Source: Mobula hypostoma (lineage: Eukaryota). Taken from it: 64,000 bases of DNA. The stretch spans positions 55,554,001-55,618,000 of the forward strand of contig NC_086108.1 of assembly GCF_963921235.1 (NCBI RefSeq). The letters are read 5' to 3'. The number at the start of each line of letters is the position of its first letter. The first letter of the stretch is position 1. Shown piece after piece: positions 10,140 through 61,350 of this stretch. The notes beneath the pieces were generated by a model. The model had not been told where the DNA came from and did no database searches. It saw only the letters and a program-made list of their open reading frames with translations. Made by a program: the position numbers and the translations under genes.

Positions 10140-10372
10140 GTGCTGCACTGTACAGGGAACATTTGTTGTATCACTTTGACCACTCTGTACTGAAAGTGAT
10201 TTTTTTTTTGTTCTAATCATGTTTTCTTGTAAAATTGTGCATAATTTATGTTTTTGTGAATGCTGCTTATACGATACTATGCACTATGATGCTGCTGCAA
10301 GTAATATTTTAATTGCACCTTTACATGCATGTATTTGGGCTCGTAACAATAAACTGGACTTTCAGTTTCAGG
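10140..10372 (+). mobile_element. Rex1-type LINE 3' UTR fragment
   Basis: GATGCTGCTGCAAGTAA...ACAATAAACTGGACTTT tail typical of the Rex-type tails here. Confidence 0.5.
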
Positions 10373-10454
10373 CATAGAGTAACACACAGGCATGGTATAA
10401 ACAGTCTGGAAACAGGCCATTCAGCCTAAATTTGGCTTTCAACTTTAAAAGCAA

Positions 10455-10680
10455 GTCTCAACTGCCCTCTTAAACAGACATAAAATATGGTATGATTCTA
10501 CTCCAGAGATAGTGTATTCTGGCTAATAGTTATACTTCAGCCAACATCACAGAGCATCAGACTACCCAATTGTGGAAATAGCTGTGTGTAAATTGCCCAA
10601 GTATTTTCCAAACATAACAGATAACTGCGCTTTAGAAGTACTTTATTATTTGAAAGTGTTTCATAAATGCAGCTTTCCTT
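10455..10680 (+). mobile_element. Ancient Deu-domain SINE (SacSINE1/AmnSINE1-like) remnant
   Basis: CTGGCTAATAGTTATACTTCAGCCAACATCAC...GCTGTGTGTAAATTG...AGAAGTACTT...ATAAATGCAGCTTT resembles the Deu domain and L2-like tail (recalled consensus). Confidence 0.55.
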
Positions 10681-10756
10681 CCTAATCTCTTACTCATTAA
10701 GCTATTTAACTTGCAAAATATATAATACGTTGCAACATGTTTTGAGATCAACTGAC

Positions 10757-10832
10757 TACTAATCTTATTTTTTTCCACAGGTAAGTAATTCCATTGTATC
10801 TGAGAATTCAGACATCAGCTAATTTGGTAAGA
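10757..10832 (+). other. Candidate recursive splice site (AG|GT) with 46-nt RS-exon (10781-10826)
   Basis: Branch-point-like TACTAAT 10757-10763, acceptor CTTATTTTTTTCCACAG ending at 10780, consensus donor GTAAGT at 10781-10786, second donor TTG|GTAAGA at 10826/10827. Confidence 0.65.
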
Positions 10833-11169
10833 TATTCCTGAATTTGAGACCAATGTGCACTCCAACTATATAATGACTATATATTGATGTTAATTTGAAG
10901 TATTGAAATAGTATTTTTATTTATTCAGCTGTGTTGTTATTTCTTTATTAAAAGTAATTTTTTTTTGTATAAATGGAATTGACTTCACAATTACAACCAC
11001 ACCAAATTCTATTCATGGTCTTTTTCCTGTGTAACTACTAATAATTGCATTTTTACTTGGATGTACAGTGAAATTTTCCTCATGAAATGAATTCCAAAGT
11101 AGTTGTAGATCAAATTAATTATTACACTAATTTTCATGCTGATGAAACTGGAAAATTGGTTGAGCCTTT

Positions 11170-19729: not shown

Positions 19730-22700
19730 TCAAAAAAAAGGGAGACACTGCCTAGCGGAGTGGTCACCGTCGGAGTAGTCTGAGTCAGTGTGGTAGGGCT
19801 TTGGTGAGGTAAGTGGACCATTTTTCCCTTGCAATTTTTGAGGAATAGAGAGCATGTCTGCAGGTTAGTACTTAGCTCTGGGTGCCAGATGTGGGAATCC
19901 TGGGAATTTTCCAGTCTCCCAGACAGCCACATCTGTGCCAGGTGCACTGAGATGCGGCTCCTGAGAGACCGTGTTGGGGACCTGGAGCTGTGACTTGATG
20001 ACCTACAGCTTATTAGGAAACATGAGCAGGAGATAGAGGAGTTAGTCACCCTGAGGCTGCAGGAGTTAGATAAGTGGGTGACTGTCAGGGAAGGGAAGGG
20101 AAGAGCTCAGATGGTAGAGAGCATCCCTGTGGCCATCCTCCTCAGAATCGTTATCTCATTTTGGATTTTGTTGGGGGGCAGGGGGGGTGACCTGACAGAG
20201 GATGACCACGCGATCGGGTCTCTGGCACTGAGCCTGGTTCTGTGGTGCAGGAGGGAGGGAAGAAGATGAGGAACGCAGTAGTCATAGGGGATTTCATAGT
20301 GAGGGGAACAGACAGGAGGATCTGTCAGCTTGACAGAGATACCTGCATGCTGTTTTGCCTCCCAGGTGCCAGGGTACGGGATGTCTCGGGTAGTGTGCAG
20401 AGTAGTCTGAAGGGAGAGGGTGAACAGCTAGAAGTCTTGGTACATGTTGGTATCAATAACATTGGTAGAACAAGGGAGGAGGTCCTGAAGAGAGAATTCA
20501 GTGAGTTAGGTAGGAAGCTAAAAAAGCAGGAAACCAGGGTAGTAATCTCAGGATTGCTGCCTGTGCTACGTACTAACGAGCGCAAGAATAGCACGATCAG
20601 GCATATTAATGCATGGCTGAGAGACTGGTATAGGGGGGAGGGCTTCAGATTCCTGGATCACTGGGGCCTTTTCTGGGGGAGGTACAACCTGTCTAAAAAG
20701 GATGGGTTACACCTAAACCCAAAGGGGTCCAATATCCTAGCAGGCTGGTTTAATAGAACTGTTAGGGAGGGTTTAAATTAATTTGGCAGGGGGATGGAAA
20801 CTGGAGTGATAGGGCTGAGGAAGGGGAAAACAGAAGTAAATCAAAGATAGCGTGCAACAGAGATGATAGAAAAACGGGCAGGAGATGAAGCATAATCACA
20901 GCCATTGGGATGAGTTATAAATACTGGACTGAAAATATTATATTTGAATGCACGCAGCATAAGAAATAAACTGGGCAATCTTGAAATTCAGCTACAGATT
21001 TGCAAGTATGATGTTGTGGCCATCTTTGAAACTTGGCTAAAGGATGGCTGGCATTAGGAGCTCAGCGTCCAATGGTGATTCGGAAAGATAGGTTAGTAGG
21101 CAGAGGGGGTGGTGTGGCCCTGTGTGTAAGAAATAATATTAAATCATTAGAAAGAGGTGACATAGGATCGGAAGGTGTAGCATCTCTATGGGTTGAGTTA
21201 AGAAATGGCAAGGGTAAAAGGACCCGAATGGCAGTTGTATACAGGCCTCCAAACAGCAGCCAGGATGTGGATTACAAAATACAGCAGGACATAGAAAAGG
21301 TGTGTCAGAAGGGCAATGTCATGATAATCGTTGGGGATTTTAGCATGAAAGTTGATTGGGAAAACCAGGCTAGTACTGGACCTCAAGAGAGGGGATTGGT
21401 AGCATGTCTAAGGGATGGCTTTATAGAACAGCTTGTTGTTGAGCCCACTAGGGGATCAGCTGTGCTCAATTGGGTGTTGTGCAATGATCCGGAGGTGATA
21501 AGAGAGCATAAGGTTTAGGAACACTTAGGGAACAATAATCACAATATGATTGAGTTCACTTTGAAATTTGAGAAGGAGAAACTAAATTCCAATGTGTTGG
21601 TATTTCAGTAGAATAAAGAAAATTGCAATGGCATGAGAGGGGAAATAGCCAAAGTTGACTGGAAAGGGACACGAGCAGAAAGGACAGCAGAGCAGCAATG
21701 GCTAGTGTTTCTGAGAGAAATGAGGAAAGTGCAAGACAGATATATTCCAAATAAAAAGAAATTTTCAAATGGAAGAAGGACACTGCGATGCTGACAAGTG
21801 AAGTCAGAGCCAAAGTAAAAGCAGAAGAGAGGGCATACAAGAAAGCCAAAGCTCGTGGGAAGATAGTGGATTGGGAAGCTTTTAAAAACTTGCAGAAGGA
21901 AACTAAGAAGGTCATTAGGAAGGAAAAGCTGAAGGGGACTTTGCGGTTCTTACGTTTATCTGCCGTTCATTCTTTGGGGCATTTCTCTGTTTTCATGGAC
22001 ATTTGCAAAGAAAAAGCATTTCAGGATGAATATTGTATACATTTCTCTGACATTAAATTGGACCTTTGAACCTTTGAATTATGAAAGGAAGCTGGTGATT
22101 AATATCAAAGAAGATACTACAAGCTTTTTTAAGTATATAAAAGGTAAAACAGAGTTGAAGGTAGATATAGGACCAATAGAAAATTACACTGGAAATATTG
22201 TAATGAGAGACGCAGCGATGGCAGAGGAACTGAATGCAACTATTCATGAACAGATTAATGAACTATTAATGAACAGATGCAACTATTTTGCATCAGTTTT
22301 CACAATGGAACTTATCTGCAGTATACAGGACATTCAACAGTGTCAGGGAAGTGAAGTATGCGCAGTGAAAATTACAACTGAGAAGGTGCTCAGGAAGCTT
22401 AATGGTCTGAGGGTGGGTATATCTCCTGGACCTGATGGAAGACACCCTCGGGTTCAGAAGGAAGTAGCTGGAGAGATTGTGGAGGCATGAACAAAGATCT
22501 TTCAAGAATCGATAGATTCTGGCATTGTACCAGATGACTGGAAAATTGCAAATGTTACTCCGCTAATTAAGAAGGGTGGCAATCTGCAGGAAGGAAACTA
22601 TAGACTTGTTAGCCTGACATCAGTGGTTGGGAAGTTGTTGGAATTGATTGCTAGGGATGAGATTAGGGAGTAGCTGGAGGCACATGACAAGATAGGCCAA

Positions 22701-30911: not shown

Positions 30912-31110
30912 GCCTCAGCACTGAACTGACTCTGCATCTGTGGCCTGCAGCCATCAGCACTCACCTCAGCACTGAGCCTGGCTCCACAGCTGTGGGCTGT
31001 GGCCTGCAGCCATCGGCACTCACCTCAGCACTGAATCTGGCTCCATGGCTGTGGGCTGTGAGCTGTGTCCTGCAGCCATCAGCATTCACCTCAGAGCTGA
31101 CCCTGGCATT
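30912..31110. repeat. GC-rich minisatellite, ~60-bp unit x3
   Basis: Repeated CTGTGGCCTGCAGCCATC(A/G)GCACTCACCTCAGCACTGA..CTGGCTCCA..GCTGTGGG. Confidence 0.85.
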
Positions 31111-48521: not shown

Positions 48522-49630
48522 TGTCAAGTCAAGTTTATTGTCATTTGCCTATATGCATGTATACCATCAAATGAGATAACATTTCTCTTGACCAGAGTGT
48601 AAAGCACAGTAGTATACATACATATAACACACAATAACTTAGGAAAGAAAGAATAAAATCTGCAAATGAATTCTGCAGATAAATGAAGTAAATTGTATAA
48701 ATTAAATACTGTGGGGTACAATACAAGTTAAGCTGTGACGCTTCGAAAGTGCTGTGGCTGGGAGTTCAGAAGCCTAATGGCCTGACGGAAGAATCTGTTT
48801 CCCATCCTGACCATTCTTGTCTTTATGTATCTGAGTCTCCTGCCTGATGGTAGGAAGAGGATGTTGGATGTACAGGTGGGATCCTTCATAATACTAAGGG
48901 CCCTGCGTTTGCAGCGCTCCTGATAAATGTCCTAGATGAATGGTAGAGAGATCCCTATAATCCTCAACTGTTCTCACAGTCTTTATAGGGACTTCTGGTC
49001 CAATGCACTGCTGCTCCCATACCAGATGGAGATGCAACTTGTCAGGATGCTGTCAATGGTGTTCCTATAAAATTCAGTTAAGATGTGTGGGAAGGGGGGG
49101 GAGCCTCGCTTGCCTTAATCTCCTTAGGATGTGAGGTCATCCATGATGTGAGCTCCCAGGAACTTAGTACACTCAACTCTCTCTATGGAGAAGCCAGACA
49201 GGGGTGGTTCATCTGCTCCTTCCTAAAGTCCACAGTAATTTCCTCGGTCTTCTCCATGTTCAGACTTGGATTGTGGCTCTCACACCAGTTCATCAGCCAT
49301 TCAACTTCCTCTCTGCACTCCGTCTTATCATCATTGTTGATGAGGCCAGCCACTGTTGTCTCATCCACGAACTTGATGGCATGGTTGGATCTGAATCCTG
49401 TGACACAGTCGTGTGTCAGCAGTGTAAACAGCTGTGGGCTGAGCACACGGCCCTGAGAGCGCCAGTGCTCAGAAGAATGGGACAAGAGACATTACTGCCC
49501 ACACAGACTGACTGTGGCTTTTCTGTTAAGAAGTGCAGGATCCAGTCACAGAGGGAGGTGTTCAGACTTGGTGAGGACAGTTTCCCCACTGGTTTCTGGG
49601 GTATGATGGTGTTAAATGCTGGACTGAAGT
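48522..49630 (-). mobile_element. Rex1/Babar LINE (RT C-terminal half + tail)
   Basis: Peptides [11 protein letters not shown]...[11 protein letters not shown] and [17 protein letters not shown]...KFVDETTVAGLI. Tail TCAAGTCAAGTTTATTGTCAT on the plus strand. Confidence 0.88.
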
Positions 49631-51128: not shown

Positions 51129-52558
51129 CAGTGCCTATAAAAAGTATCACCCCCCCCCCCCGGAAGTTTTCATGTTTTATTGTTTTACAACATTGAATCA
51201 CAGTGGATTTTATTTGGCTTTTTTGACACTGATCAACAGAAAAAGACTTGTGTCAAAGTGAAAACAGATCTCCATAAAGTTAGCTAAATTAATTACAAGT
51301 GTAAAACACAAAATAATTGATTGCGTAAGTATTCACCCCCTTCAAGTCAGTATTTAGTAGATGTACCTTTGGCAACAATTACAGCCTAGAGTCTGTGAAG
51401 ATAGATCTCTATCAGCTTTGCACATCTGGATGCTACAATTTTTACCCATTCTTCTTTACGGAACAGCTCAAGCTCTATCAGATTGTATAGAGATCATGAG
51501 TGAATAGTCCTTTTCAAGTCCAGCCACAAATTCTCAATTGGATTGAGGTCTGGACTCTGACTTGGCCACTCTAGGACATTAACTTCATTGCTCTTAAGCC
51601 ATTCCTGTGTAACTTTGGCTTTATGCTTGGGGTCATTGTCTTGCTGGAAGACAAATCTTCCCTCAAGGCGCAGTTCTCTTGCAGACTGTGTCAGGTTTTC
51701 CTCCGGGATTTCCCTGTATTTTGCTGCATTCATTTTACCCTCTACCTTCACAAGCCTTTCAGAGCCTGCTGCAGTAAAGCACCCCCTCAGGATAATGCAT
51801 CCACCACCATGCTTCATAATCGGGATAAAGCTCCCATAAAGCTGTGACTGGTGAAGCACCCAGGCAACAGTTGTTGCTTGTGCAGTCTCTCCCACCTCGG
51901 TCACCAAAGCTTGTAACTCCTCCGGAGTTGTCACAGGTCTCTTGGTGGCCTCACTCACTAGTCCCCTTCTTGCACGGTTACTCACTTTTTGAGGATGGCC
52001 TGCTCTACGCAGATTTACAGCTGTGCCATATTCTTTCCATTTCTTGATGATTGACTTAACTGTACTCCAAAGGATATTCAGTGACTTGGAAATTTTCTTG
52101 TATCCATCTCTTCACTTGTGCTTTTCAAGTACCTTGTTGCGAAATTGCTTGGAGTGTTCTCTTCTCTTCATGGTGTAGATTTTAACAGGATACAGACTCG
52201 CCAGCAGTTGGTTCTTCCAGATACCTGTGTATATTTACTGTAATCAATTGAAACACCTTGCCTGCACACAGATCTCCATTTAACTAATTATGTGACTTAT
52301 AAAACCAATTGCCTGTATCAGTGATGATTTGTGTGTCATATTAAAGGGGGTGACTACTTATCCAATCAATTATTGTATGTTTTATATTTGTAATTAATTT
52401 AGATCACTTTGTAGAGATCTGTTTTCAATTTGAGATGAAAGAGTCTTTTTCTGTTGATCAGTATCAAAAGAAGTCAAATTAAATCCACTGCGATTCAGTG
52501 TTGTTTAACGATAAAACAAGAAAACTTCCAAGAGGGTGAATATTTTTTATAGGCACTG
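51129..52558 (-). mobile_element. Tc1 (DD34E) transposon, IR/DR-type long TIRs, internally deleted
   Basis: Ends CAGTGCCTATAAAAA ... TTTTTATAGGCACTG|TA with ~215-bp inverted repeats and inner direct repeats. Transposase starts near 52171 (MKRREHSKQ). QQDNDPKH...SPDLNPIENLW has 34 residues between D and E. Confidence 0.95.
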
Positions 52559-53134: not shown

Positions 53135-54955
53135 CATGCAACACATACAAAGTGCTGGAGGAACTCAGCAGCCCAGGCAGCAATGATGGAAATTAATAAA
53201 CAGTCAACATTTTGGGCTGAGAACCTTCCTCAGGACTGGAAAGGGGGGGAGAAGACACAAGAATAAAATGGTAGGGTGGGGAAGGAGGACAGTTACAAGG
53301 TGAGGGGTAAAGAAAGCCAGGTAGGAGGGAAAGATGAAGGGCTGGAGAGGAGGGAATCTGATAAGAGTGGACATGGGAGAAAGGGAAGAAGGAGGAGCAC
53401 TAGGGGTGTGATAGGCAGGTGAGAAGTGTTAAAAGGCCAGAGTGGAGAATAGCAGAAGAGGTAAGGGTGAGGTAAGAAAGTTTTTACTGGGAGGAGAAAT
53501 CGATGTTGATGCTATCATGTAAGAGGCTACCCAGACAGAATATGAGTTGATGCTCATCCATCCTGAGAGTGGCCTCATTGTGGCACAAGAGGAGGTCATA
53601 CACAAACATCTTAGAACAGGAATGGGAACAGGATTTAAAATGGTTGGCCACCAGGAAATTCCATTTTTGGTAGATGGAGCAGATGTGCTTGACAAAGCGG
53701 TCCCCCTGTCTATGACAGGTGTCACCAATGTAGAGGAGGCCACTTCGGGAGCACTGGATATAATAGACAACCCCAACAGAATCACAGGTGAAGTGTTCCC
53801 TCACCTGGAAGTACTGTTTGGGGGCTAAATAGAGCTGAGGGAGGGTGTGAATGTGCAGGTGTAGCACTTTGGCCACTTGCAGGGTTAAGTGCCAGGAGGG
53901 AGATTAGCAGGGAGGGATGAATAGAAAAGGGAATCATGGAGGGAGCAATTCCTGCAGGGAACAGAGAATGGAAGGGAGATAAAGATGTATTTGGTGGTAG
54001 GATCCCTTTGGAGATGGTGGAAGATGAGGGGAATGATGTATTGGATGCAGGCTCATGGAATAGTAGATTAGGACAAGAGGAACTCTATCCCTGCTAACGT
54101 GGTGGGAAATAGAGGAGATGTGGGTAAGGGCAGCATCAATGGTTGACAAAAGGAATCCCCATTCTTTGATGAAGTAAGATACCTCTGATGTCCTGGAAAG
54201 GAAAGCCTCATCCTGGGAGATGAATGAGCTGAGAAAAGGAATAGCATTTTTACAGGACACAGCATGGGAAGAGGTATAGGCAAGATAGCCGTGGGAATGG
54301 TGCCTTTATAAAGGATGTTGTTAAAAAGTTTGTCTCCAGAGATGGAGACAGAGAGATTGAGAAAAGGGAGAGAAGTATCAGAAATGGACCAAGTGAATTA
54401 AAGGGCAGGGTGGAAGTTGGAGGCAAAGTTGATGAAATTGACAAGCTCAGCATGGGTGCATGAAGCAGCACCAATGTTGTTGTTAATGTAGTAAGGAAGA
54501 GTTGGAGAGTATTACCAAGGAAGGCTTGGAAAATAGACTATTCTACATAGCTACCGAAGAGGCAGGCATAGCTGACTCCATGCGAGTGCTCATGGTTACC
54601 CCTTGAGTCTGAGAGGAGCCAAAGCAGAAATTATTTTGAGTGAGGACCAGTTCTGCCAGATGGAGGAGGTTGGTGGTGGAGGAGAACTGGGTGGTGCTCA
54701 TGTTAAGAAAGAAATGAAGGGCTTAAAGGCCTTCTTGATGGGGGTTGTAGAAGTGTGTAGGGACTGGACTTCCATGATGAAAATGAGAGTGTCACGGCCA
54801 GGAGGTGAGGAGATTGAAATCATGTGAAGTATTGCAGATGTAGGAAGAAAGGGGCTGAAGCTAGGGGAATAGAATGGAGTTGAGGTATGAGGACACAAGC
54901 TCAGTGGGACAGGAGCACATAGAGACAATGGGCCTACCCAGACAGTCAGGCTGAC
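53135..54955 (-). mobile_element. Degenerate Penelope-like element (RT C-half, GIY-YIG, terminal repeat)
   Basis: Peptides VGVVYYIQCSRSGLLYIGDT, SCKNAIPF, RDRVPLVLIY and LIFIMEVQSLHTS. Confidence 0.88.
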
Positions 54956-58923: not shown

Positions 58924-60232
58924 CATTCATTCATTCAGGTGCCTTGCCGTTCGGCGTGGGCGATCATGTCTCTCCATCTATCACAGTCCCTGACCCTCCG
59001 AATTGTAGTTGTTGCCTCCCCGTTTCTAACCATCTACACTTGGTCTTTTAAGCTTTCTGAGTCTCAGGTACATCACGCTGATTATTGGTACGTGATCACT
59101 GTAGCAGTCTGCACCCCGATATGTTTTGCATGATTTCAGAGCATTTCTACACCTTCTCCTTATAAGCACATAATCAATCTGGTTTCTGGTGTTATCCCCG
59201 TGCTCTTCCATGTCCATAGTTTTCTCAGGTGTTGCTTAAAGATGGTATTACCAATTATATAATCTTTTTCTGTGACCCATGTAGCTAGTCGTTCACCTCT
59301 CTCATTTCTCTCACCTGTGCCGTAATACCCAATAGTGTCCTCGTCCCTGGTCTTGTCTACTTTTGTATTGAAGTCACCTTGAATAATGGTATTTTCTGAG
59401 CTTTTACATTGTCTTAATGCTGTTTCTAGTTTGTCATAAAATTGATTGATGCTTTCTTCACTGTTGTCTGCTGCTGGGGCATAAACTTGAACGATGTTCA
59501 TGTCCAAAGGTTTTGCATGTAGTTTCACAAGTAACATTCAATCTGATATTGTCCAATAGCCTTTTATTGATTTTGCATGTTCTTCATCTAACATAATTCC
59601 AACACCTTTTTCACGTATCTCTCCTCCTGAGTAAATGATGGTATATCCCTCTGAGCTTGTTTTACCAGCTCCTTTCCACCTCATCTCGCATGTTCCCAAG
59701 ATGCTGATTTTTATTCTTTCCATTTCCTGTTTGATGTTGTCTAGTTTACCTGGTTGGTTAAGGATTCTTACATTCCAGGTTGCTAGTCTGATCTTCTTTG
59801 CTTTTAATCTGGTGACAGTCGCTGGATAACGGTCAAGATTCACCTGTGGCGCATGAGATCCTCTACCAGATGAGGCTCCTTCGGTGAAGGCTCCATTCAC
59901 ATCTTTGAGCTGAGACCGTAGTTGATTTGAGTTCATGATTGTACAAGAGAGGAATACTGAAGTGGTTTCCCGTTGCCTTCTTCAGTTGCAGTGTCCATAC
60001 AGGATGGGTAACCCTGGCCATTGATCAGCAGATTCATCTGCCCAGCGTTTTTAGTTTTACAGTCATAAATTCCAATTGTAGAATCTGCTTGTAAAACCAT
60101 TCACCACCTGCAAACCATGGCTCACGTGACCCTGATTGGGAGGCTAAACAGGTACTACACCTTGCCCCAGGGTGACCTGTAGGCTATCGGATGAAAGGAG
60201 CACCTTACACCATTGCACAGCACCGACACCAA
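58924..60232 (-). mobile_element. RTE-clade LINE, internally deleted (5' leader + AP endonuclease + extreme C-terminus), with TSD
   Basis: Peptides LATWNVR...EMRW...GVGIML, VQVYAP...GDFN...NQIDY...SDH, then a jump to DRWRDMIAHAERQGT* and a (TGAA)n tail. TSD GTGACAGAAAT (58913-58923) / GTGGCAGAAAT (60233-60243). Confidence 0.9.
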
Positions 60233-60515
60233 GTGGCAGAAATAAGATGCTCTATTCTACAAAGGAAAAATATTGCTTTTTGTATCCCCTATGCCACTCT
60301 AACTCTATTATGCATCAGTGGTTGTCAGAAAATATAAGTAATGGTATAATGTTTGCCAAGACACGACTCATGATAATAAAATATGTAAATTTCGTAGTTC
60401 AGCACAAGTGTGCATTAAGTTTAAAAAAGAGAAATAATTATAGTTCATGAACATATTTTGATCATCTTAAAGAAATATATTCTTAAGGGTTTTTGTCAAG
60501 CTCCTTTATTATTTT

Positions 60516-61350
60516 CCCTCCCCACTGATCTCCCTCCTGGCACTTATCCGTGTAAGCGGAACAAGTGCTACACGTGCCCTTACACTTCCTCCCTTACCAA
60601 CATTCAGGGCCCCAAACAGTCCTTCCAGGTGAGGCAACACTTCACCTGTGAGTCGACTGGGGTGATATACTGCGTCCGGTGCTCCCGATGTGGCCTTTTA
60701 TATATTGGTGAGACCCGACGCAGACTGGGAGACCGCTTTGCTGAACATCTACGCTCTGTCCGCCAGAGAAAGCAGGATCTCCCAGTGGCCACACATTTTA
60801 ATTCCACATCCCATTTCCATTCTGACATGTCTATCCACGGCCTCCTCTACTGTAAAGATGAAGCCACACTCAGGTTGGAGGAACAACACCTTATATTCCG
60901 TCTGGGTAGCCTCCAACCTGATGGCATGAACATCGACTTCTCTAACTTCCGCTAGGCCCCACCTCCCCCTCGTACCCCATCTGTTACTCATTTTTATGAA
61001 CACATTCTTTCTCTCACTCTCCTTTTTCTCCCTCTGTCCCTCTGAATATACCTCTTGCCCATCCTCTGGGTCCCCCCCCCCCTTGTCTTTCTTCCCGGAC
61101 CTCCTGTCCCATGATCCTCTCGTATCCCTTTTGCCAATCACCTGTCCAGCTCTCGGCTCCATCTCTCCCTCTCCTGTCTTCTCCTATCATTTTGCATCTC
61201 CCCCTCCCCCTCCAGCTTTCAAATCCCTTACTCACTCTTCCTTCAGTTAGTCCTGACGAAGGGTCTCGGCCTGAAACGTCGACTGCACCTCTTCCTACAG
61301 ATGCTGCTTGGCCTGCTGCGTTCACCAGCAACTTTGATGTGTGTTGCTTG
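60516..61350 (+). mobile_element. Young 5'-truncated Penelope-like element: open GIY-YIG endonuclease frame + terminal repeat, 10-bp TSD
   Basis: Frame open to the stop at 60955: PCKRNKCYTC...GVIYCVRCSRCGLLYIGETRRRLGDRFAEH...VATHF...EEQHLIFRLGSLQPDGMN. TSD TTATTATTTT at 60506-60515 and 61351-61360. Confidence 0.93.
61249..61284 (+). ncRNA. Minimal type I hammerhead ribozyme motif
   Basis: AGUC-CUGACGA-AGGGUCUCGGCCU-GAAA-CG-UC-GACU. Stem I AGUC/GACU, core CUGACGA 61253-61259, GAAA 61273-61276, predicted cleavage after C61280. Confidence 0.75.

Follow-up and report, generated by a model that had tools for sequence, protein, structure and literature searches.

A likely recursive splice site and its 46-nt poison RS-exon in the giant 5' intron of ray PDE4B, with a similarly built unit in PDE4D

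We found a junction, at positions 10780/10781 of the DNA analysed here, that we judge likely to be a recursive splice site of the vertebrate type, with a poison RS-exon of 46 nt. It lies in the long 5' intron that the long PDE4B isoforms (B1- and B3-type) have in the ray Mobula hypostoma. Stepwise removal of this intron is probable; the support is indirect and comes from an excess of such sites in the introns of PDE4B and PDE4D and from a near-identical unit in PDE4D.

The window is the whole stretch of 64,000 nucleotides that was analysed, C50:55554001-55618000, in a Mobula genome of 3.48 Gb in 200 contigs. The first-pass annotation had named a branch-point-like motif, an acceptor directly abutting a donor, and a second donor further on. 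When we re-read the sequence, the coordinates of all of these elements were borne out base for base (Table 1). The candidate reads ...ccacag|GTAAGTAA, a 46-nt exon, and then TTTG|GTAAGATA. By sequence, the GT directly follows an AG that has the marks of a strong 3' splice site, namely a branch-point-like motif and a pyrimidine tract; by hand count, 16 of 20 bases just 5' of this AG are pyrimidines. The second donor, TTG|GTAAGA, is present at 10826/10827, 46 nt past the first junction, and the stops that had been noted in all three frames of the 46-nt segment are there as well, at 10820 (frame 0), 10782 (frame 1), and 10786 and 10801 (frame 2). All of the sequence features listed for vertebrate recursive sites in three published accounts (PMC8797253, PMC6110456, PMC6224609) are present in this unit.

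The site had also been described as the only strong acceptor-abutting-donor on either strand, and as lying outside repeats, and both descriptions hold. There are 24 AG|GTRAG sites in the window (13 on the + strand and 11 on the - strand), and four of them are AG|GTAAGT. A pyrimidine tract is found only at the flagged site, which has a pyrimidine fraction (Y) of 0.79 and a 9-nt Y run, while the other three AG|GTAAGT sites have 0.42, 0.42 and 0.16. Over the 191,451 nt of the PDE4B intron that we read, there are 31 sense-strand AG|GTRAG sites, three of them with Y of at least 0.65, among which only the flagged site has GTAAGT. The site has one match in the genome, has no self-match within 264 kb, and shows single-copy depth in the DNA of a relative across 10342-11009. 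The relative (~6x DNA reads) also gave a 1330-nt contig over 9593-10927 with 54 differences, which is ~4% divergence throughout. Sequencing runs X1, X5 and X7, tried as RNA, were rejected; they showed repeat-dominated depth and near-zero single-copy cover, which is how low-coverage DNA behaves.

Table 1. Coordinates of the candidate unit, its host gene, the PDE4D sites and other features. Positions without a contig name are those of the window; C50 is the contig of the window.
Feature	Position	Strand	Details
Branch-point-like TACTAAT	10757-10763	+	Branch A = 10762, 18 nt 5' of the junction
Pyrimidine tract and CAG acceptor, CTTATTTTTTTCCACAG	10764-10780	+	CAG = 10778-10780
GTAAGT donor abutting the acceptor	10781-10786	+	Junction 10780/10781 reads CAG|GTAAGT
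Predicted RS-exon, 46 nt	10781-10826	+	First six bases are GTAAGT
Downstream 5' splice site TTG|GTAAGATA	10827-10834	+	Would define the RS-exon
Block alike between PDE4B and PDE4D downstream regions	10887-10934	+	48 nt, 34/48 alike, sharing ATTTATTCAGCT
B1-type exon end	C50:55426549	+	Donor ccaagattg|GTAAGG
B3-type exon (first coding, alternative)	C50:55471275-55471567	+	Donor acatacatg|GTAAGA
Short B4-type exon	C50:55671820-55671927	+	3' of the flagged site
First common exon start	C50:55688096	+	Acceptor ...ctaatag
PDE4B1-type intron	C50:55426550-55688095	+	261,546 nt
PDE4B3-type intron	C50:55471568-55688095	+	216,528 nt
Protein P0006, residues 10-94	C50:55426296-55426550	+	
Protein P0006, residues 93-160	C50:55688091-55688294	+	
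Protein P0006, remaining residues	Up to C50:55862975	+	
PDE4D strict site 1	C5:46035369|8 (region C5:46035201-46035500)	-	...ttttttttgcag|GTAAGTAA, 37-nt exon, CTTG|GTAAGATA
PDE4D strict site 2	C5:45769218, junction C5:45769206|5 (region C5:45769051-45769350)	-	tttag|GTAAGTAC, GTACAA donor 62 nt on
CR1-like LINE, GDSL-esterase ORF and endonuclease	20206-21515	+	
Reverse transcriptase fragment	49186-49491	-	
Tc1/Sleeping-Beauty-type transposase	51497-52111	-	
Penelope-type GIY-YIG piece	53487-53903	-	
LINE endonuclease	59163-59537	-	
Penelope-type GIY-YIG piece	60425-60952	+	

The window had been predicted to lie within a giant intron on the + strand. We found that the entire window is inside one PDE4B intron, with the site on the sense strand. 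A family search located PDEase_I exons on the + strand of C50 at 55857773-55861819, 240 kb past the end of the window, and one such exon is 100% identical to proteins named PDE4B from Mobula birostris, Pristis pectinata, Cetorhinus and others. A 744-aa Mobula PDE4B protein (P0006) gave 14 matches on C50, 14/14 of them on the + strand, and the B3-type exon matches residues 1-97 of a Pristis protein (P0007) at 97% identity over 55471275-55471565. With the window mapped and the host gene found to be PDE4B on the + strand, the site is neither intergenic nor within a minus-strand gene. PDE4B spans at least 436.7 kb (55426296-55862975), with every exon on the + strand. The donors and the acceptor were read from the sequence, which gives the intron lengths in Table 1. 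From the site it is 138,231 nt to the B1-type donor, 93,213 nt to the B3-type donor and 123.3 kb to the acceptor, which places it 53% of the way along the 261.5-kb intron and 43% along the 216.5-kb one. This is a very long (>50 kb) early intron of a long, brain-type gene, read in the sense direction. The layout mirrors that of human PDE4B, in which introns of 328.6, 334.1 and 254.3 kb share one acceptor (Zhang 2018, PMC6110456 suppl. file 10). In the unique DNA of the 264 kb, T exceeds A on the + strand (skew +3.9%, positive in 11 of 12 bins), and the GC skew is about 0. The T>A skew fits transcription of the + strand, though it is not specific to it.

The PDE families were tested as host because of an Ig exon resembling ROR1 and the synteny in human. 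This complete I-set Ig exon is at C50:53857075-53857329 (+), 1.7 Mb upstream of the window and on the same strand; the I-set family search itself was dominated by a titin-like array. The exon looks like ROR1, and in human ROR1 and PDE4B share a strand, with ROR1 ~2 Mb ahead. If the exon is ROR1, then the ray ROR1-PDE4B synteny and orientation would presumably match human chr1p31.

Protein-domain scans of the region returned transposon domains only, both for the 47 window ORFs of at least 90 aa and for the 150 longest of the 548 unique ORFs between -200 kb and +64 kb (Pfam). The B3-type exon of PDE4B is among those 150 scanned ORFs, yet has no Pfam family. Rfam families had no match anywhere in the window. 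There is a 59-nt tandem repeat at 30938-31107 (2.8 copies, 83% matches), each copy of which has AG|GTGAGTGC on the minus strand. The sole CpG-island-like 500-nt stretch in the 264 kb is at C50:55418001-55421088, 5-8 kb before the B1-type exon, with a GC of 0.57 and a CpG o/e of 0.66 vs 0.27 overall. Beside it, a minus-strand run of ORFs (55419267-55421088) had no Pfam match; these look hAT-transposase-like to us. The stretch could be the promoter region of PDE4B, or a domesticated or young transposon.

The motifs, host gene, strand, intron sizes and reading frame are all shown by sequence, and we infer that the spliceosome uses the site as follows. A10762, the pyrimidine tract and the CAG would act as a 3' splice site, and U1 at the donor 10827, 46 nt on, would define a small exon. 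The upstream exon (ending ...TTG for the B1-type and ...ATG for the B3-type) would then be joined to 10781, removing the first 138.2 or 93.2 kb. Ligation of either upstream exon to 10781 yields a strong 5' splice site on paper. This rebuilt donor, TTG|GTAAGT or ATG|GTAAGT, would be used with the acceptor of the common exon at C50:55688096 to remove the last 123.3 kb, and a recursive route via the rebuilt donor would leave the mRNA unmarked. Each of the two upstream exons ends in TG, the first two bases of a codon, so the junction frame is TG|G TAA with an immediate stop on inclusion. If the GTAAGA donor wins, the 46 nt would be included, and because the insert reads TGG TAA, a premature stop far 5' of later junctions is predicted to send the transcript to NMD.

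An ordinary regulated cassette exon is an alternative reading. It would be either an NMD-coupled poison exon or a non-coding 5' exon from an upstream promoter, and the GTAAGT at its start would be incidental, with the regenerated donor rarely used. The 46-nt unit is strong at its acceptor and at its donor, GTAAGA being nearly as good as the regenerated GTAAGT, and the immediate stop predicted on inclusion would suit a poison cassette. Exon-to-downstream junctions are seen for those mouse RS-exons whose downstream donors are strong, and 'RS-like cryptic exons' are reported to exist (PMC8797253). However, what defines a recursive site is a perfect GTAAGT set exactly against the AG, and this is also found in the PDE4D unit and at 15 of 20 mouse RS sites (PMC8797253). 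The regenerated donor is also slightly nearer to the consensus than the RS-exon donor GTAAGA, the same relation as at the 67% of human sites where the regenerated donor is the stronger one (Zhang 2018, PMC6110456). We consider a cassette unlikely, and the cassette and recursive readings are not exclusive, because the vertebrate RS-exon is part of the recursive mechanism (PMC6224609).

It is also conceivable that the motifs came together by drift in an AT-rich intron and are either unused or used only as stochastic noise. We searched for a strict motif, defined as nine pyrimidines, N, and YAG|GTAAGT (Y9-N-YAG|GTAAGT), with the reversed pattern as the control. Both strands of the 3.48 Gb contain 82+89=171 strict sites, below the 145+148=293 of the reversed control (99 vs 144 for the CAG-type and 72 vs 149 for the TAG-type). 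Because the strict motif is rarer than its control, the motif as such is not enriched genome-wide, and most copies need not be functional. By our own reading of the match lists, ~40 of the 171 are copies from repeat families, such as TTCTTTCCTGTAGGTAAGT. Among the 72 TAG-type matches we counted ~30 copies of one repeat family, which end ...TTTCCTGTAGGTAAGT. The strict motif by itself decides nothing. The second donor and the stops are also individually unremarkable in AT-rich DNA and add little: by arithmetic from base composition, stops in all three frames are expected in ~1 in 4 of any AT-rich 46-nt stretches, and a nearby GTAAG in ~1 in 5 cases within 200 nt. No PDE4B site was found in the mammalian catalogues that we searched (listed below), which would also suit chance.

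What stands against chance is where the strict sites are. A 64-kb window has a ~0.003 chance of containing the strict motif. In the sense orientation, the giant 5' introns contain one strict site in PDE4B and two in PDE4D, where 0.027 are expected by density (0.0064 for the PDE4B intron and 0.020 for the ~818-kb PDE4D 5' intron). On the negative side, strict sites are lacking in the two remaining PDE4 paralogues (C73 and C81). The strict pattern has no match in the remaining 70 kb of the PDE4B intron (55618001-55688000). The PDE4B site is single-copy, and one of the PDE4D sites has both of the 11-mers of the PDE4B unit, with no further match in 3.48 Gb. A priori, perhaps ~5-10% of strict sites would be functional, and sense placement in an intron of >200 kb would perhaps raise the odds ~25-fold; as a rough judgement, the PDE4 family context and the twin PDE4D unit would raise the odds of use further. 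Chance juxtaposition therefore seems improbable to us. As a separate observation, the shortfall of the strict motif, ~40% below the reversed control, may stem from an asymmetry in composition or from strong cryptic splice units being selected against.

PDE4B is the closest paralogue of PDE4D. We identified the paralogue on C5 as PDE4D from one exon that is 100% identical to a Mobula hypostoma protein named PDE4D, and its 5' intron is ~818 kb long (C5 46410789 to 45592650, minus strand). The unit at C5:46035369|8 is built like the PDE4B site, with CAG|GTAAGTAA, a short exon (37 vs 46 nt) that is laden with stops in both genes, and TTG|GTAAGATA. The TTG|GTAAGATA 11-mer is identical in the two units, and its bases outside the core G|GTAAG are, we assume, not what U1 snRNA pairing would select. 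The identity of these non-core donor bases suggests common descent or a shared special constraint. The two sites are also at similar distances past the homologous B3/D3-type exon, 93.2 kb for PDE4B and ~90.3 kb for PDE4D. A composite pattern, CAGGTAAGTAA-N(15-60)-TTGGTAAGATA, which was designed after both sites were seen, has exactly two matches in 3.48 Gb, these two units, and its reversed control has 0.

We also compared the sequence around the two units. Their acceptor flanks are identical at 22/45 positions in an ungapped comparison, a value reached by 4 of 476 controls, and the T-richness common to both could account for this. At the downstream-donor flanks, 9/45 positions are identical (ungapped), which 89 of 96 controls reach. 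The 48-nt block downstream of both units scores 20.5 vs 12.8+-2.2 for shuffles. This score was reached by one of 500 shuffles and by 10 of 5276 genomic 200-nt windows, the true one included, and the block is weak evidence for kinship. When the 300-nt PDE4D unit was aligned along 264 kb, the true PDE4B locus ranked 6th of 1758 windows and was thus not singled out. The relaxed composite YAG|GTAAGTA ... TKG|GTAAGA is not enriched, with 12 matches vs 25 for its control. No second PDE4B unit paralogous to the PDE4D site at C5:45769218 was found in the 264 kb searched. A conserved non-splicing element (an enhancer or a protein-binding site), or an old low-copy insertion remnant in both PDE4 introns, would suit the weak 48-nt likeness 3' of both units but is very improbable, as the conserved letters are precisely the two splice junction consensus regions and there are no further copies in the genome and no Rfam family match.

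Under the recursive reading of the PDE4B site, the two units may be true paralogues, descended from one unit that the long 5' intron of a PDE4B/D ancestor carried before the genomes of early vertebrates were duplicated, and both kept in the ray. We hold this to be a serious possibility that falls somewhat short of an even chance. If it is true, a recursive unit was kept in both ray daughter genes for some 450-500 million years, and the mammalian PDE4B copy was lost or is undetected, PDE4D being the sole reported host of the pair. Recursive sites would then rank with the oldest conserved non-coding elements found in vertebrate introns. The site in a cartilaginous fish, if it is used, would bring PDE4B, a drug-target gene in psychiatry and inflammation, into the list of hosts; recursive handling of giant introns would already have been present at the base of the jawed vertebrates, and there would be a concrete, testable case of recursive sites inherited through whole-genome duplication. 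An ancient paralogous unit would also explain why the known mouse hosts form paralogue sets: Cadm1/Cadm2, Lsamp/Ntm/Opcml and Hs6st2/Hs6st3 (PMC8797253, suppl. file 4). Taken with PDE4B/PDE4D, these sets hint that recursive sites may in many cases be older than the genome duplications of vertebrates.

To our knowledge, only a few dozen well-supported vertebrate recursive splice sites are known, and all were found in mammals or in a small number of bony vertebrates. For human, a preprint (10.64898/2026.09.10.750672) cites nine introns with high-confidence recursive splice sites. In Zhang 2018 (PMC6110456), PDE4B is not in the tables of junction-supported or saw-tooth sites (files 11 and 12), and the human PDE4B candidates there are at the level of the motif, with 3' splice-site scores of 5.2-9.9 among 30 of 33 rows. 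Two human PDE4B positions deserve a second look, hg19 chr1:66593794 and 66606653, with PhastCons of 1 and 0.996 (suppl. file 10); they are 119 kb and 106 kb 5' of the corresponding common exon. Pde4b is not among the 20 mouse brain sites of PMC8797253, and PDE4B is not in the four text supplements of Hoppe 2023. Our literature search found no report of recursive splicing in PDE4B, and it found no match for recursive splicing together with ohnologs. The first-pass annotation had offered either an ortholog of a known site or a new site. The second option fits, since no PDE4B recursive site was found in the literature; in place of an ortholog, the host is a paralogue of PDE4D, one of the genes that it had listed.

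The intronic ratchet points of Drosophila are the most distant comparison. They also have a juxtaposed acceptor and donor, in long introns that are removed stepwise (PMC8605326, PMC6110457). However, ratchet points are far more numerous in flies, whereas the vertebrate type is rare and RS-exon-dependent, with 20 sites in mouse brain (PMC8797253). The features associated with the mouse sites are an intron >51 kb, a gene >294 kb, the 5'-most intron, AGGTAAGT and a pyrimidine tract (PMC8797253), and all of these are found at the PDE4B site, where the gene is at least 437 kb. The 16/20 pyrimidines at the PDE4B site are within the range of 0.6-1.0 for the 20 mouse RS sites (PMC8797253, suppl. file 3). 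In human, 68% of RS-exons carry a premature stop, and a branch-point motif is enriched 20-50 nt 5' of RS sites (Zhang 2018, PMC6110456).

For the arrangement of the two donors, the closest likeness is to mouse Cadm2 (RS-exons of 42 and 73 nt) and Lsamp (48 and 57 nt), which have an AG|GTAAG start and a good second donor, as in ray PDE4B (PMC8797253). Those mouse RS-exons for which downstream junctions were detected range from 42 to 202 nt in length (PMC8797253, suppl. file 4), and at the Cadm2 and Lsamp sites exon definition leaves detectable downstream intermediates. These sites are in genes of other families and are backed by junction reads, whereas the ray PDE4B unit is a candidate read from sequence.

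For the host gene, the closest likeness is to PDE4D. Human PDE4D has three RS sites (hg19 chr5:58981769, 58764261 and 58678237) with 3' splice-site scores of 12.8-13.7 and PhastCons of ~1, backed by junction reads and saw-tooth patterns, and two of them are also in Sibley (Zhang 2018, PMC6110456). In mouse brain, three of the 20 RS sites are in Pde4d, and all three are AGGTAAGT (PMC8797253, suppl. files 3, 4). The two strict sites in ray PDE4D are candidate orthologues of these published mammalian PDE4D sites. For the three mouse Pde4d RS-exons, the downstream donors are listed as weak (MaxEnt from -1.1 to -3.2) and junction reads to downstream sequence are absent (PMC8797253); ray PDE4B is unlike them in having a strong GTAAGA donor 46 nt on. 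Otherwise, the human and mouse PDE4D sites and the ray PDE4B site are in paralogous hosts, within a giant 5' intron between the isoform-specific exon and the first common (UCR1) exon, and have in common AGGTAAGT and a strong tract of pyrimidines. In ray PDE4B, as in the PDE4D hosts, the upstream exons end in G, so that in each case a GTAAGT donor would be rebuilt.
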